A DNA stretch of 37,205 nucleotides from a virus (taxonomy: Duplodnaviria; Heunggongvirae; Uroviricota; Caudoviricetes). Of this stretch, positions 20,521-37,205 are shown piece by piece. The notes under the pieces are model-generated. The model was not told the origin of the DNA. It did not search any database and was given only the letters and a program-made list of their open reading frames with translations. The translations under genes and the position numbers were made by a program. Numbering within the stretch: position 1 is the stretch's first letter; the number at the start of each line of letters is the position of its first letter. The DNA lies in IMG/VR virus record IMGVR_UViG_2721755652_000006; one strand, written 5' to 3'.

Positions 20521-22926
20521 ATCGGGTAGCAGTGATGCATTACTGCATCACCGCCCCCTAAGAACCGTACGTGCCAGTTTCCCGGCATACGGCTCAAGCC
20601 TTTCTAAGCCCACTCTCATGAGCCGGTTTCACTACATGTATACCTTTCGCATGAACAAGTGTGTGACACATCGGATGCAGCATAATCAAATTGGAGAGGC
20701 AGTTGCTCCCTCCATCGACTCGCCGTATGATGTGATGAACCTGCCACTGGGAATCAGATGTAATCCTCTCATCACATATGGGGCATCGGCCCCGCTGCTC
20801 AAACCAGATTTGAATGAGCTTTTTCCGTCCTTGCAGTTTGTGCCGCATTTTGTCTGCACAACGCTCCTCAAAGTACATCTCCCATTGAGGATCGAACGGA
20901 TTAGCTGCAATTTTAATCGGTTTAAACCGGTTGATAGGCGTATCGATTGCTTTCCTCAGATTTGCATACTGAGGCTTACCGTTGGCAAGGAGTTCTCCGG
21001 TAGCCGTGGAGAAAGACCAGTTTCGGGCACCTTGTTGATGGAAATATCTTTTCCGAATCCACTTCTTTCCCTTATTGGGATGACGCCGAACAGCCCAACG
21101 CCATAAAGCCAGCCAGATCTCATTGTCAACTTTGTTAAATGCGACCTTGGCCACAATGTGTTGATGGTAAGCCGCCCACCCTTTGATCATTGGGTTCAGC
21201 ATGCGGATCAACGTAAGCTGATCCATAGCTTTGTTGCCTTTGATTACAGCGCGTATTTTCTTTAAAAAGGAACTGACATTGGCTTTAGAGGGTTTGATCA
21301 GCATCTTACCGCCATATTTGCGAATGTTCTGTCCAAGAAAATCAAATCCTTCCTCGATATGTGTGATTTTCGTCTTTTCCGGAGAAAGCATTAATCCTCT
21401 TTCAGCCATAAACCGCCTGACGACGGGTAATACCTGAGACTCAAGAAGTTCTTTTGACTCTCCAGTGATAATAAAATCATCAGCATATCTCACATAGTTA
21501 ACTTTCGGGTTAACCAATCGTCCCTTGACTGTTCTCTTTTTAAACTCCGAAGCAAGAAGCGCCTCCAGTCCATCCAGAGCAATGTTAGCCAGTACAGGAG
21601 AAATTATTCCCCCCTGAGGAGTTCCTGAATTTACAGGGAATAACTGCCCCTTTTCCCTGTAACCCGCTTTAAGCCACTTTGTCAGGATTTGTCTGTCTGT
21701 TGAGGTGTTATCGATTAGCCATTGATGAGATATATTGTCAAAGCATCCCCGTATATCCCCCTCAAGCACCCATTCAGCGGATGTTTTCTGCGCAAGAACA
21801 CAGAAGCACTGTGCTATCGCATCTGCAGTAGACCTTCCAGTCCGAAAGCCGAAGGATCTCTGGTCAGCAGTGACTTCAGCAACGGGCTCAAGAGCCAGCA
21901 AATACAACGCCTGCATCGCCCGATCCTTCATAGTGGGTATCCCAAGGGGACGAGACTTCCCATTTGACTTAGGTATATAAACCCGCTTAAGTGGCTGTGG
22001 TTTGTAACCACGCCGTTTCAGCAGGTTAATAGCAAGAAATTTAACCTCCGGGGAAGACCATGTCTGACCATCAACCCCAGGAGTACGTTTCCCGCTATTC
22101 TCTGTAACTCGTCTGACAGCAACTGCTCTGCCACTAAACGAGTGAGTCAGTATCCATTGCAAGGATTTGACCTTGCCATGTTTACCTTCTCGTGTTGCCT
22201 TTACGATACGCGCTTGCAGTCTCCGCACTTCCCGATAGCACTGACGCCAGTTGATACTGTGCCAGGAGTCACCGTTAAGTAAGGACGCACCTTTACAGGT
22301 TGTAGCCTGCTCAGTCATCTGCTTTTCCTTTCTGGAAGATTACTCAAACTCTCTCGTAATGAAAGACCCAGTGGAAGTCTGCCCGCTTTCGCGTAGGGTA
22401 ATGTTGCCGGGCTCAACCCTTATCCGGTCCATTACAGACTGGCATTCGCTTTTTCCACCTTCTTTTACCCGCACCGCCAACAGTATCCCTTGCGGTTAAC
22501 CTGCCTCACGAGGCAGCGATACGGGCTTACCATGTTCCACCTGAATAACAACAGTAGGTTAGACTCTGCTCACAACACCGGTGGTTTATTGTCCGTGTAC
22601 CCCTAGCAAACAGAGGAGTAACCAACCACATACCTTTTGGTTCAAGCCTGTCAGCATCTTTGGCTTGTTCTGGTTAACGACGCTTCAGCAGTTCACATAT
22701 GTTAGTCATGCTACCGAGCCTAGACCTCCTCCGCCTGATGCTGGCAGATTACATGTAACCTCACGGTTTCATGCGATCCGAAGATCCGGTTTCATTGTCC
22801 TGACAGCTTCACACCCCACCGTTACCAGTGACGCATGTGTCAGTAGGCTACTGATGACGGAACATCAGGTTCCCTGACGGAATCGAACTCCGCTGGAACA
22901 ATTATTCAGGCGACTTCATGTCGCAC
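20521..22926 (-). mobile_element. Group II intron (about 2406 bp) with intron-encoded protein, oriented antisense to U
   Basis: On the minus strand the element begins 5'-GTGCGACATGAAG (plus 22926 downward) and ends …CTACCCGAT-3' (plus 20521); domain V-like GAGCCGTATGCCGGGAAACTGGCACGTACGGTTC at plus 20562-20595; the stop of the RT ORF overlaps the domain V start. Confidence 0.85.
20594..22318 (-). CDS. Group II intron-encoded protein: reverse transcriptase / maturase / HNH endonuclease
   Basis: 574 aa; RT motifs including YADD (VRYADDFIITG), a maturase X region, and a C-terminal Cys/His-rich HNH-like segment (CPICDERITSDSQWQVHHIIRRVDGGSNCLSNLIMLHPMCHTLVH). Confidence 0.88.
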   Translation of the reverse strand: MTEQATTCKGASLLNGDSWHSINWRQCYREVRRLQARIVKATREGKHGKVKSLQWILTHSFSGRAVAVRRVTENSGKRTPGVDGQTWSSPEVKFLAINLLKRRGYKPQPLKRVYIPKSNGKSRPLGIPTMKDRAMQALYLLALEPVAEVTADQRSFGFRTGRSTADAIAQCFCVLAQKTSAEWVLEGDIRGCFDNISHQWLIDNTSTDRQILTKWLKAGYREKGQLFPVNSGTPQGGIISPVLANIALDGLEALLASEFKKRTVKGRLVNPKVNYVRYADDFIITGESKELLESQVLPVVRRFMAERGLMLSPEKTKITHIEEGFDFLGQNIRKYGGKMLIKPSKANVSSFLKKIRAVIKGNKAMDQLTLIRMLNPMIKGWAAYHQHIVAKVAFNKVDNEIWLALWRWAVRRHPNKGKKWIRKRYFHQQGARNWSFSTATGELLANGKPQYANLRKAIDTPINRFKPIKIAANPFDPQWEMYFEERCADKMRHKLQGRKKLIQIWFEQRGRCPICDERITSDSQWQVHHIIRRVDGGSNCLSNLIMLHPMCHTLVHAKGIHVVKPAHESGLRKA

Positions 22927-29576: not shown

Positions 29577-32978
<3,402 letters not shown>

Positions 32979-32996
32979 ATTTTATAACCCAGAACG

Positions 32997-33021
32997 GGCG
33001 TCAGAAATGACGCCTTTTTTA
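32997..33021 (+). terminator. Rho-independent terminator after J (GGCGTCA-GAAA-TGACGCC followed by TTTTTTATT)
   Basis: Perfect 7-bp stem with a GAAA tetraloop and a 6-T run. Confidence 0.75.
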
Positions 33022-33044: not shown

Positions 33045-33644
33045 ATGCGTAAACTTTATGCCGCCATTTTGTCCGCAGCCATTTGTCTGGCCGTATCCGG
33101 TGCGCCTGCATGGGCATCTGAACATCAGTCCACGCTGAGCGCGGGGTATCTTCATGCCCGGACCAACGTTCCCGGCAGTGATGATCTGAACGGGATTAAC
33201 GTGAAATACCGTTATGAGTTTACGGATACGCTGGGGCTGGTGACGTCATTCAGCTATGCAGGAGACAAGAATCGCCAGCTTACCCGTTACAGCGATACCC
33301 GCTGGCATGAAGATTCCGTTCGTAACCGCTGGTTCAGCGTAATGGCGGGGCCGTCTGTGCGCGTGAATGAATGGTTCAGCGCGTATGCGATGGCGGGTGT
33401 GGCTTACAGCCGTGTGTCGACTTTCTCCGGGGATTATCTTCGCGTAACTGACAACAAGGGGAAAACGCACGATGTGCTGACCGGAAGTGATGACGGTCGC
33501 CACAGCAACACGTCTCTGGCGTGGGGGGCTGGCGTGCAGTTTAACCCGACCGAATCCGTGGCCATTGATATTGCTTATGAAGGCTCCGGCAGTGGCGACT
33601 GGCGCACTGACGGTTTCATCGTGGGTGTCGGTTATAAGTTCTGA
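33045..33644 (+). CDS. lom: Outer membrane protein Lom (Ail/Lom family)
   Basis: 199-aa product with signal peptide ([24 protein letters not shown]) and a C-terminal beta-barrel ending …[10 protein letters not shown]. Confidence 0.9.
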
Positions 33645-33670: not shown

Positions 33671-33698
33671 AGCCCGCCGGTTCAGGCGGGCTTTTTTG
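33671..33698 (+). terminator. Rho-independent terminator after lom (AGCCCGCC-GGTTCA-GGCGGGCT followed by TTTTTTG)
   Basis: Perfect 8-bp GC-rich stem, 6-nt loop, 6-T run. Confidence 0.8.
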
Positions 33699-33708
33699 TG
33701 GGGTGAAT

Positions 33709-36624
33709 ATGGCAGTAAAGATTTCAGGTGTACTGAAAGACGGCACAGGAAAACCGGTAGAGAACTGCACCATTCAACTGAAAGCCAGACGTAACAGCGC
33801 CACGGTGGTGGTGAACACGGTGGCCTCTGAAAATCCGGATGAAGCCGGTCGTTACAGCATGGACGTTGAGTACGGTCAGTACAGCGTTATTCTGTTGGTG
33901 GAAGGGTTCCCGCCGTCACATGCCGGGACCATCACCGTGTATGAAGATTCTCAACCCGGTACGCTGAATGATTTTCTTGGTGCCATGACTGAGGATGATG
34001 TCCGTCCGGAGGCACTGCGCCGTTTTGAGCTGATGGTGGAAGAGGTGGCGCGTAACGCGTCCGCGGTGGCACAGAACACGGCAGCCGCGAAGAAGTCAGC
34101 CAGCGATGCCAGCACATCAGCCCGTGAGGCGGCAACCCATGCGACTGATGCTGCGGACTCAGCACGCGCAGCCAGCACGTCAGCCGGACAGGCCGCGTCG
34201 TCGGCTCAGTCAGCGTCTTCCAGCGCAGGAACGGCATCAACAAAGGCTACTGAAGCATCAAAAAGTGCTGCCGCTGCAGAGTCCTCAAAAAGCGCGGCGG
34301 CTACCAGTGCCGGTGCGGCGAAAACGTCAGAAACGAATGCGGCAGTGTCACAACAATCAGCCGCCACTTCTGCATCCACCGCGACCACGAAAGCGTCAGA
34401 AGCTGCCTCCTCAGCCAGGGATGCGTCGGCTTCAAAAGAGGCGGCAAAATCATCAGAAACGAGCGCAGCCTCGAGCGCCAGTAGTGCAGCCTCCTCGGCA
34501 ACGGCGGCAGGCAATTCCGCGAAGGCGGCCAAAACGTCTGAGACAAACGCTAAGTCCTCTGAAACGGCAGCAGAACAGAGTGCCTCCGCAGCAGCAGGCT
34601 CAAAAACAGCGGCTGCATTATCTGCCAGTGCCGCGTCAACAAGTGCCGGGCAGGCCTCAGCCAGTGCCACCGCCGCCGGAAAATCGGCAGAAAGTGCCGC
34701 ATCGTCTGCTTCAACAGCCACAACGAAGGCTGGCGAAGCCACTGAACAGGCCAGCGCAGCAGCGAGTTCTGCTTCCGCAGCGAAGACATCCGAAACGAAC
34801 GCGAAAGCGTCGGAAACCAGCGCAGAATCCTCAAAAACGGCTGCCGCATCGTCAGCCAGTTCGGCGGCGTCATCGGCATCATCTGCGTCTGCTTCAAAAG
34901 ATGAGGCGACCAGACAAGCGTCAGCAGCGAAGAGCAGCGCCACGACGGCATCCACGAAGGCGACAGAGGCAGCTGGTAGTGCGACGGCAGCAGCTCAGAG
35001 CAAAAGTACGGCGGAATCTGCAGCAACGCGCGCTGAGACAGCGGCAAAACGGGCAGAGGATATTGCATCCGCCGTGGCGCTTGAGGATGCGAGCACGACG
35101 AAAAAGGGGATAGTACAGCTCAGCAGTGCGACTAACAGCACTTCCGAGTCACTGGCGGCAACGCCAAAAGCCGTTAAGGCCGCGTATGAGCTGGCTAACG
35201 GGAAATACACCGCACAGGATGCAACGACAGCACAGAAAGGGATAGTTCAGCTTAGCAACGCGACCAACAGCACATCTGAAATGCTGGCGGCAACGCCAAA
35301 GTCGGTAAAGGCAGCCTATGACCTTGCTAACGGGAAATATACTGCTCAGGACGCTACGACAGCACAAAAAGGAATTGTCCAGCTCAGTAGTGCAACCAAC
35401 AGCGCATCTGAAACGCTTGCCGCGACACCGAAAGCAGTGAAAGCAGCTAATGATAATGCGAATGGTCGGGTACCTTCTGCCCGTAAGGTGAATGGTAAGG
35501 CGCTTTCATCGGATATAACACTGACGCCGAAAGATATTGGTACGCTTAACTCAACAACAATGTCATTCAGCGGTGGTGCTGGTTGGTTCAAATTAGCAAC
35601 GGTAACCATGCCACAGGCGAGTTCTGTTGTTTCAATTACGTTGATTGGTGGCGCGGGATTTAACGTGGGGTCACCTCAACAGGCAGGTATATCTGAACTT
35701 GTTTTGCGTGCAGGTAATGGTAATCCGAAGGGGATTACTGGTGCTTTATGGCAGCGCACATCGACAGGGTTTACAAATTTTGCCTGGGTCAATACATCTG
35801 GTGATACTTACGATATTTACGTTGCAATCGGAAATTATGCGACTGGTGTAAATATTCAATGGGATTATACCAGTAATGCCAGCGTGACGATTCATACGTC
35901 ACCAGCATATTCTGCTAATAAGCCGGAAGGGTTAACGGACGGTACAGTTTATTCACTCTATACGCCATCAGAGCAGTTTTATCCGCCTGGCGCACCAATC
36001 CCGTGGCCATCAGATACCGTTCCGTCTGGCTATGCCCTGATGCAGGGGCAGACTTTTGACAAATCTGCATACCCGAAACTTGCAGCCGCTTATCCGTCAG
36101 GCGTGATCCCTGATATGCGTGGCTGGACGATTAAGGGCAAACCTGCCAGTGGTCGGGCCGTATTGTCTCAGGAACAGGACGGCATTAAATCGCACACCCA
36201 CAGCGCCAGCGCATCCAGTACGGATTTGGGGACGAAAACCACATCGTCGTTTGATTACGGCACTAAATCCACGAATAACACCGGGGCGCACACGCACAGT
36301 GTGAGCGGTACAGCCGCAAGTGCCGGAAACCATACTCATAGTGTCACAGGCGCATCAGCAGTCAGCCAGTGGTCACAAAATGGGTCAGTACATAAGGTAG
36401 TGTCTGCGGCCAGTGTGAATACAAGTGCTGCAGGAGCGCACACTCATAGTGTCAGCGGCACAGCTGCATCTGCAGGTGCTCACGCACATACTGTCGGTAT
36501 TGGTGCTCATACGCACTCTGTTGCGATTGGCTCACATGGACACACCATCACCGTTAACGCTGCGGGTAACGCGGAAAACACTGTCAAAAACATCGCATTT
36601 AACTACATTGTGAGGCTTGCATAA
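33709..36624 (+). CDS. stf: Side tail fibre protein Stf (long form with Ala/Ser-rich repeats, 3 tandem ~43-aa repeats and a His-rich C-terminal tip)
   Basis: N-terminus [30 protein letters not shown]… matches lambda Stf; C-terminal HxH repeats ([15 protein letters not shown]…); the ORF track starts at an upstream GTG (33703). Confidence 0.9.
35095..35448 (+). repeat. Three tandem direct repeats (129/132 bp, about 85-90% identical) inside stf, encoding a TT(A)[36 protein letters not shown] unit
   Basis: Repeat copies begin at 35095, 35224 and 35356. Confidence 0.85.
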
Positions 36625-37205
36625 TGGCATTCAGAATGAGTGAACAACCACGGACCATAAAAATTTATAATCTGCTGACCGGAACTAATGAATTTATTGG
36701 TGAAGGTGACGCATATATTCCGCCTCATACAGGTCTGCCAGCAAACAGTACCTATATTGCACCGCCAGATATTCCGGCTGGCTTCGTGGCTGTTTTCAAC
36801 AGTGATGAGTCATCGTGGCATCTCGTTGAAGATCATCGGGGTAAAACGGTTTATGACGTGGCTTCCGGCGACGCGTTATTTATTTCTGAACTCGGCTCAT
36901 TACCGGAAAATGTTACCTGGTTATCGCCGGAAGGGGAGTTTCAGAAGTGGAACGGCACAGCCTGGGTGAAAGATGCAGAAGCAGAAAAACTGTTCCGGAT
37001 CCGGGAGGCGGAAGAAACAAAAAACAGCCTGATGCAGGTAGCCAGTGAGCATATTGCGCCACTTCAGGATGCTGTAGATCTGGAAATCGCAACGGAGGAA
37101 GAAGCCTCATTGCTGGAAGCCTGGAAAAAGTATCGGGTGTTGCTGAACCGTGTTGATACATCAACTGCACCTGATATTGAGTGGCCTGTAATACCTGAAG
37201 TTTAA
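36624..37205 (+). CDS. tfa: Tail fibre assembly protein Tfa
   Basis: 193-aa product [42 protein letters not shown]… matches lambda Tfa; start overlaps the stf stop (TAATG); stop at the window end. Confidence 0.92.

Follow-up and report, generated by a model that had tools for sequence, protein, structure and literature searches.

The 37,205-nucleotide (nt) stretch of viral DNA analyzed here (IMG/VR record IMGVR_UViG_2721755652_000006; "the window" denotes the whole of it) carries a gene, stf, which a preliminary description had singled out for a low-complexity kilobase rich in Ala, Ser, and Thr, three tandem repeats of about 130 bp, and a His-rich tip. We conclude that this region is very probably the side tail fiber gene of a lambda-like, Sp8-type prophage of Escherichia coli O157:H7, encoding a modular fiber subunit, trimeric by homology, in which each of the "repeats" is a known structural element. 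Direct support comes from the homologies of the individual modules, the heptad periodicity of the shaft, the one-to-one alignment of the His-x-His (HxH) motifs of the tip, and length variation among alleles by whole units and whole heptads, and nothing that we found contradicts the side tail fiber assignment. The original observation is correct but ordinary, and the object itself is already known. The gene and its modules are as follows; amino acid (aa) numbers refer throughout to the 973-aa version of Stf that is read from the GTG at 33703.

33709..36624, + strand: stf, side tail fiber gene (100% identity to Sakai ECs_1650; Pfam)
33709..33990, + strand: StfN domain (aa 3-96), by homology the collar around the tail tube/tip junction (PF08400; match to PDB 9e7m/9mgh)
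34024..35091, + strand: proximal shaft (aa 108-463), about 51 unbroken A-x-x-S-A-x-x heptads (autocorrelation, heptad stacking, AlphaFold2, hereafter AF2, and the lambda equivalent)
35092..35223, + strand: PF03406 (Phage_fiber_2) unit 1, 44 aa (Tandem Repeats Finder, Pfam, repeat search)
35224..35355, + strand: PF03406 unit 2, 44 aa, the unit absent from natural 2-unit alleles (Pfam, allele comparison)
35356..35487, + strand: PF03406 unit 3, 44 aa, of which the last ~13 residues diverge; matches phage Mu fiber protein S (Pfam, PDB 5yvq/8ju3)
35488..35937, + strand: middle module (aa 596-745), predicted all-beta sandwich, one of at least two alternative modules among alleles (AF2)
35938..36621, + strand: T4 gp37-type receptor-binding tip (aa 746-973), collar and needle (PDB 2xgf; Pfam)
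36343..36432, + strand: hypervariable head segment (aa 881-910), presumed receptor-contact loops (identity trough, allele differences)

By its sequence, the gene can be identified as the known, annotated lambda-type side tail fiber gene of an Sp8-type prophage. From end to end it shows 100% identity to ECs_1650, annotated as "phage side tail fiber protein" in the Sp8 prophage, a lambda-like element of E. coli O157:H7 Sakai, and its 2922 nt are also 100% identical in 30 of the 30 complete E. coli genomes among the matches listed, which include EDL933, Xuzhou21, and 86-24. Altogether, 304 records match stf at an identity of at least 99%, and 1270 genomes have a place covering at least 80% of it. 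The product matches PF08400, PF03406 (three times), PF07484, and PF03335 in Pfam, falls in tail fiber families of PHROGs, and has a homologue in related phages that is annotated as side tail fiber protein, while a scan of Stf and of Tfa, the product of the next gene, against NCBIfam matched no families. Together with the J-lom genes upstream and a Caudo_TAP chaperone downstream, these results bear out the gene name given in the preliminary description.

The N-terminal PF08400 match extends from aa 3 to 136 and takes in profile positions 1 to 134 of 134 (E 3.1e-72), and residues 1 to 94 match the "Tail fiber protein" of Ur-lambda in PDB entries 9e7m and 9mgh (E 7.7e-52). In that phage, StfN has been described as a collar at the junction of tail tube and tip (PMC12617516). 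The Ur-lambda Stf (774 aa; Wang et al. 2025, PMC12617516) lies in the same J-lom-stf-tfa position. Its StfN and that of the Sp8 protein are near-identical across 94 residues, and the two also have in common a coiled-coil shaft built of heptads, a PF03406 unit, a distal tip that resembles gp37, and a chaperone of the Tfa type. The Sp8 protein thus has at the sequence level what marks a lambda-type Stf, that is, the StfN domain, the J-lom-stf-tfa setting, and a long proximal shaft that follows a short linker.

Heptad shaft and the reading frames that overlie it

The Ala/Ser/Thr-rich stretch occupies aa 114 to 466, or ~1.05 kb, and consists of 37% Ala, 24.5% Ser, and 11% Thr (73% for the three together). 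The AAKTSETNA unit that the preliminary description had reported as recurring is present in three exact copies (nt 34315, 34525, and 34777) along with one AAKSSETSA. The description of this kilobase as low complexity holds for its extreme composition, but the region is a strict heptad repeat of coiled-coil type and not amorphous. Residue autocorrelation at lag 7 is 0.43 (z = 10.9 compared with shuffles) and is high at all multiples of 7 up to 56, with troughs between them, and the Fourier power of Ala peaks at 3.5 and 7.0 residues. When aa 108 to 464 are written in rows of seven, they fill 51 rows in a single register with no stutters; the first heptad position is Ala in 47 of 49 rows, the fourth is Ser in 37 of 49, and the fifth is Ala in 35 of 49. 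We also looked for a periodicity of higher order in the heptad region and found no clear super-repeat, block shifts of 12, 16, and 22 to 23 heptads reaching ~60% identity versus a background of 40%.

A single-sequence AF2 monomer model of aa 95 to 620 is helical from aa 97 to 464, and the helix ends exactly at the start of the first 44-aa unit. The helices have predicted local distance difference test (pLDDT) scores of 70 to 89, with modest confidence overall (61 to 62). In the model the coiled coil doubles back, which is usual when a trimeric coiled coil is modeled as a monomer, and the model served as support for secondary structure alone. An α-helix rises 0.148 nm per residue, and on this assumption the shaft would be ~53 nm long.

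The Stf of Ur-lambda, as derived from cryo-electron microscopy, cryo-electron tomography (cryo-ET), and AlphaFold3, consists of StfN (residues 1 to 91), a linker (92 to 101), a proximal coiled coil (102 to 393), a hinge (394 to 422), and a distal gp37-like part (PMC12617516). Because it has the same architecture, the Ala/Ser-rich kilobase of the Sp8 protein can be equated with the known proximal coiled-coil shaft, trimeric by homology. Compared with lambda, the Sp8 shaft is longer by an in-register 105 aa, or 15 heptads, which gives 48 rather than 33 strict heptads. At the nucleotide level, megablast covers 46% of the Sp8 stf with lambda sequence at ~87% identity.

The composition of the kilobase leaves room for the idea that it is a disordered low-complexity spacer, or that it hides real overlapping genes, and three long open reading frames (ORFs) do overlie it in other frames:

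34106..35113, + strand: other-frame ORF, 335 aa (composition by-product)
34206..34955, - strand: other-frame ORF, 249 aa (composition by-product)
34550..35068, - strand: other-frame ORF, 172 aa (composition by-product)

We consider either version very improbable. A spacer is difficult to reconcile with a heptad register that runs over 51 repeats without a stutter in a region predicted to be helical, with a lambda homologue that is modeled as a coiled coil consistent with cryo-ET (PMC12617516), or with allele length variants that keep the heptad register (e.g., the 105-aa block of 15 heptads). For overlapping genes, we shuffled the codons of the heptad region with the composition of Stf kept. 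The stop-free runs in the frames of the three ORFs, in the order given above, averaged 204, 240, and 100 codons in the shuffles compared with observed runs of 355, 262, and 182 codons, which were equaled in 2%, 37%, and 3% of shuffles. The run of 355 stop-free codons in the +2 frame, which just 2% of shuffles reach, could be taken to favor a gene; however, shuffles routinely yield open runs of 100 to 240 codons, and a tail of 2 to 3% is unremarkable and not significant across six frames. Moreover, the other-frame products are Arg/Pro/Gln-rich or Ala/Asp/Phe-rich. The shaft codons are rich in GCN, TCN, and ACN, so that codon position 2 is 65% C and 3% T, and the long other-frame ORFs on both strands, which had been called spurious at the outset, are best read as by-products of codon composition.

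PF03406 units and their copy number

Directly after the shaft lie three head-to-tail units of 44 aa at aa 464 to 595, consisting of one 44-residue sequence and two variants of it. Tandem Repeats Finder reports a period of 132 with 2.6 copies and 78% matches at 35102-35447, and a separate repeat search finds three 132-nt copies at spacings of 132 and 132. The three tandem copies noted in the preliminary description are therefore real, but all three measure 132 nt in codon register and not a mixture of 129 and 132 bp. The PF03406 profile matches in three stretches with a score of 172.4 bits, far above the gathering cut-off of 22 (E 1.2e-51). Unit 3 also aligns with residues 100 to 157 of Mu gpS (PDB 5yvq and 8ju3; E 4e-8 to 5e-8). 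This tail fiber protein S of phage Mu has PF03406 units in common with the Sp8 Stf but differs in that the Sp8 gene has them as a strict head-to-tail 132-nt array. Over the PF03406 units, the confidence of the AF2 monomer model falls below 50.

The units of the window allele are well diverged from one another. The three pairs are 76%, 65%, and 58% identical at the nucleotide level and 84%, 70%, and 66% identical at the amino acid level, and the longest in-register exact runs that they share are 17, 11, and 8 nt. Any two units differ at 25 to 38 codons, of which 18 to 23 differ only synonymously. Because there are so many synonymous-only differences, the array is old, and because its units are old and diverged, it is stable in this allele rather than a slippage hot spot.

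In order to see how unit number varies in the family, relatives were gathered through the N-terminal domain, which gave 113 loci (80 from IMG/VR and 33 from GTDB species-representative genomes) with 70 complete Stf proteins of 652 to 1260 aa. The 70 complete relatives have 0, 1, 2, or 3 of the 44-aa units. Between two near-identical alleles, L064 (942 aa) and L050 (986 aa), the length difference is exactly one 132-nt unit, and the 3' 1.5 kb has only 4 mismatches; units 1 and 2 of L050 are 89% identical to each other with an exact run of 60 nt. When a synthetic 2-unit version of the window stf was used as a query, it matched E. coli FCI1 and SC434 in one piece, at 97.9% and 96.6%, and revealed that these strains carry natural alleles with two units, whose flanks are 96 to 100% identical to the window up to the tip. 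In the same search, every O157 row sampled had a span of 1196 nt, which corresponds to three units. These comparisons indicate that unit number does change in the family by in-register gain or loss of a whole unit, so that the idea in the preliminary description that such repeats can expand or contract and change fiber length stands at the family level. It does not carry over to the window allele, where slippage would be infrequent because the copies are too diverged. In the 2-unit alleles, the first unit agrees with copy 1 over 126 of its 132 positions, and its last ~35 nt mix characters of copies 1 and 2. A unit deletion by crossover at the 17-nt run that units 1 and 2 share was considered as the origin of these alleles, but given the mixed characters it could not be placed there, and neither the junction nor the direction of the event can be determined.

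Two other accounts of the array have to be weighed against that of an old, stable triple module. In one, the 132-bp units are a hot spot for slippage or recombination and act as a contingency-type locus that often changes copy number within a lineage and thereby tunes fiber length on short time scales. The whole-unit differences between near-identical alleles (L064 and L050; FCI1 or SC434 and the window) are what this would produce, and the similarity of the first two L050 units is consistent with recent duplication or gene conversion. The window units, however, are not near-identical, and their exact runs of 17, 11, and 8 nt are under the usual length for RecA exchange; for efficient RecA-dependent exchange in E. 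coli, reportedly ~23 to 27 bp is the figure usually quoted (Shen and Huang 1986). Added to this are the synonymous-only differences, which mark the array as old, and a unit length that is a multiple of 3, which makes phase switching impossible. Within the O157 lineage, the 2922 nt are identical in all of the genomes listed and the sampled rows are all 3-unit, and we saw copy-number variation only between more distant alleles. We therefore regard a hot spot as improbable. The other account holds that assembly has collapsed or expanded copies, so that the unit number is an artefact. Beyond the generic risk that tandem repeats pose for short-read assembly, nothing was found in its favor, while each of the 30 complete genomes listed, among them Sakai and EDL933, was assembled independently and matches the 2922 nt in a single alignment at 100%, and the copies differ at 24 to 42% of positions, so that reads place uniquely. 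An artefact is thus scarcely credible, and the collapse of repeat copies that had been named as grounds for rejecting the array has not materialized in independently closed genomes.

Middle module, tip, and head segment

The middle module (aa 596-745) has no sequence match in Pfam or the PDB. A PDB match to rusticyanin was dismissed as a chance match (E 4.3). AF2, again as a monomer and with no alignment used, predicts an all-beta sandwich (pLDDT 62; predicted template modeling score 0.64), and fold searches returned only generic beta-sandwiches and other fiber proteins.

The tip, in contrast, has a close relative of known structure. Residues 746 to 973 align with positions 15 to 242 of the T4 gp37 chain in the crystal structure (2xgf_A; E 2.5e-88), with 154 of 227 positions identical (68%), and the alignment covers this stretch from end to end, with a gap of one residue on each side. 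The collar (PF07484, aa 763-810, E 6.6e-12) and the C-terminal 11 residues are conserved, as are the HxH motifs at aa 831, 863, 877, 913, 927, 936, and 945 (nt 36193, 36289, 36331, 36439, 36481, 36508, and 36535), all seven of which align one to one with HxH motifs of gp37. The needle of T4 gp37 contains seven iron ions along its length, for which these motifs serve as ligands (Bartual et al. 2010, as cited in PMC11705849 and PMC9659904). The HxH-rich sequence that had been recognized at the outset as typical of fiber tips is thus a gp37-type needle, with homology over its full length, seven placed motifs, and divergence that is concentrated in the head segment. The remainder of the Sp8 Stf is unrelated to gp37, and its chaperone is of the lambda Tfa type (PF02413) and not of the T4 gp38 type.

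At the head segment, aa 881 to 910, identity to T4 gp37 is only 7 to 33%, compared with 73 to 100% in the flanks, so the Sp8 receptor need not be OmpC or lipopolysaccharide (LPS). The equivalent region of T4 has been described as a putative specificity determinant (PMC9659904). The alleles of the family also differ mainly here, in both sequence and length, through replacement and indels. By analogy with T4, we presume that aa 881 to 910 form the receptor-contact loops.

Since the tip is hypervariable among alleles and the window also encodes a reverse transcriptase (ORF 20594..22318, - strand, 574 aa), diversification of the tip by a diversity-generating retroelement was considered. It was rejected as having next to no likelihood. 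The enzyme has RVT_N, RVT_1, GIIM, and HNH domains and is annotated as ltrA in RefSeq, which marks it as the reverse transcriptase/maturase of a group II intron. In addition, no part of stf is repeated elsewhere in the window at an E value of 1e-3 or below, no template repeat in the window matches 36340-36440 with adenine-specific mismatches, and the tip variants are indels and wholesale replacements and not point changes at fixed positions.

Genomic setting, allele diversity, and function

The ORF that contains stf (33703..36624, + strand, 2922 nt) can be read from two start codons. The length of 973 aa given in the preliminary description is correct for the GTG at 33703, but the ATG at 33709, which gives 971 aa, appears to be the likelier start. 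It is favored because the Shine-Dalgarno-like sequence GGGGTGA (33701-33707) precedes it, because the GTG lies within that sequence, right behind the T-run of a terminator-like hairpin, and because the RefSeq annotation and the solved N terminus of lambda Stf both begin MAVKISG, which matches the ATG. The gene order is J (host specificity; 29580-32978), lom (33045-33644; PF06316, E 1.5e-120), stf, and tfa, in agreement with the Sakai Sp8 annotation, and the stop codon TAA of stf overlaps the start codon of tfa (TAATG). The features that flank stf are as follows.

33671..33699, + strand: terminator-like hairpin and T-run between lom and stf (8-bp stem with 7 GC pairs, then TTTTTT; consensus match, putative)
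36624..37205, + strand: tfa, tail fiber assembly chaperone (PF02413 Caudo_TAP, E 8.1e-45; annotation)

GC-rich hairpins with T-runs flank lom on both sides, at 32996-33015 (after J) and 33671-33692 (before stf). The two may serve to insulate lom as a unit of its own, open to expression from the lysogen, although they are consensus matches, of which the region contains no more than shuffles do. Beyond the window, Sakai Sp8 continues after stf-tfa (locus L001, 9623-10513) with genes that include one annotated as a catalase and a further short fragment labeled "tail fiber assembly protein" beside the IS66-family element ISEc8, which points to cargo and rearrangement at this end of the prophage.

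The reverse transcriptase ORF belongs to ~2.4 kb (20523-22923) that is absent from Sakai Sp8 and is inserted in the antisense orientation within gpU, the tail terminator gene (ECs_1639 in Sakai). Of 5426 complete E. coli genomes, only 10 have this junction between gpU and the intron, including O157:H7 86-24, ATCC 43888, and F6294. Because an antisense intron cannot splice from the tail mRNA, a prophage with this insertion probably cannot build tails or display the fiber on its own.

The fiber alleles differ from one another in several modules. Counted by one criterion in the 70 complete relatives, the number of strict heptads is quantized: the window and the majority of its relatives have 48, and other relatives have 33, 31, or 10. 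A lambda-like 767-aa allele lacks one in-register block of 105 aa (15 heptads) in its shaft, has one PF03406 unit compared with three in Sp8, and differs in sequence past that unit. StfR of the E. coli K-12 Rac prophage and other lambdoid Stf alleles (942 to 1260 aa) share StfN, the heptad shaft, and the first PF03406 unit with Sp8, with ~94% nucleotide identity between stfR and the last 400 nt of the Sp8 shaft plus the start of unit 1. Many alleles have a C-terminal needle identical to that of Sp8, including a 12-residue sequence. These alleles differ from Sp8, however, in having one or two PF03406 units rather than three, alternative middle modules, and other head inserts, which is the mosaic module exchange that is usual for tail fibers. 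Across the family, fiber length varies more by whole-heptad blocks and swapped middle modules than by 44-aa units. In one IMG/VR allele (L030), a 4-residue insertion, TSAS, at Stf aa ~220 shifts the heptad register, which amounts to a coiled-coil "stutter"; all other shaft length differences that we saw are multiples of seven residues.

Among the loci collected, L084 to L092 and others carry near-identical lambda stf regions on contigs of up to ~48.5 kb, several of them at ~1x coverage, in assemblies labeled Leeuwenhoekiella, Pseudomonas, Shewanella, Desulfosporosinus, Oceanobacillus, Neobacillus, Kitasatospora, and others. Nine complete ORFs among all loci are 401 aa long, the length of lambda orf-401. 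The lambda regions in those assemblies look like contamination of public genomes with lambda control DNA.

The Stf of Ur-lambda forms trimers, is present as four fibers per virion, speeds adsorption, and uses OmpC as its receptor (PMC12617516). Reading the Sp8 modules through these homologues, we infer a fiber of corresponding trimeric state, metal binding, physical length, receptor contact, and role in adsorption. StfN would form the collar that anchors the fiber to the tail, followed by a short linker; the ~51 A-x-x-S-A-x-x heptads would form a long α-helical coiled-coil shaft; and the three PF03406 units would lie at the transition from shaft to distal part, ahead of the beta-sandwich middle module. 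In the tip, each of the seven HxH motifs, contributed by three chains, would coordinate a metal ion (iron in T4) along the beta needle, and the short hypervariable head loop would contact the host receptor, which is OmpC for lambda and T4. The downstream Tfa chaperone would fold the tip, and the finished fiber would speed reversible adsorption before J engages its receptor.

Several points limit the functional reading, though none contradicts the assignment. The sequence does not disclose the receptor, and the head loop differs both from that of T4 gp37 and from those of other gp37-type alleles. The structure predictions are monomeric, were made without an alignment, and have modest confidence (pLDDT 61 to 62). 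Finally, with gpU interrupted by the antisense group II intron, the function of Stf in this particular prophage may be moot.

A more adaptive reading of the length classes can also be drawn. In this scenario, the heptad sizes (48, 33, 31, and 10) and the 0 to 3 PF03406 units would be a "reach" polymorphism, in which fiber length and the geometry of the junction between shaft and distal part are matched to the thickness of O antigen or capsule; the 48-heptad, 3-unit Sp8 allele would be tuned to smooth LPS such as that of O157, and the middle module might be a second, glycan-binding site. We consider this rather unlikely. If it were true, the long Sp8 fiber would reach outer-membrane receptors through smooth LPS such as O157.

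For a textbook mosaic tail fiber such as this one, the results have little import beyond annotation quality. What they add to a known gene is that the shaft is a heptad coiled coil, that the units keep a register of exactly 3 x 132, that the HxH motifs match those of gp37 one to one, and that the unit array is stable in its lineage and varies by whole units across alleles. Annotators should treat the "low-complexity" kilobase as a coiled coil of 51 heptads and should not enter the other-frame ORFs there as genes. Likewise, they should take the 132-bp array as a triple PF03406 module, diverged and stable, that poses no assembly problem. Beyond annotation, the natural alleles show which junctions of the fiber tolerate gain, loss, or exchange of modules, namely those of the heptad blocks, the 44-aa units, the middle module, and the head loop, and these tolerant junctions offer practical guidance for engineering chimeric lambda Stf fibers to retarget host range.

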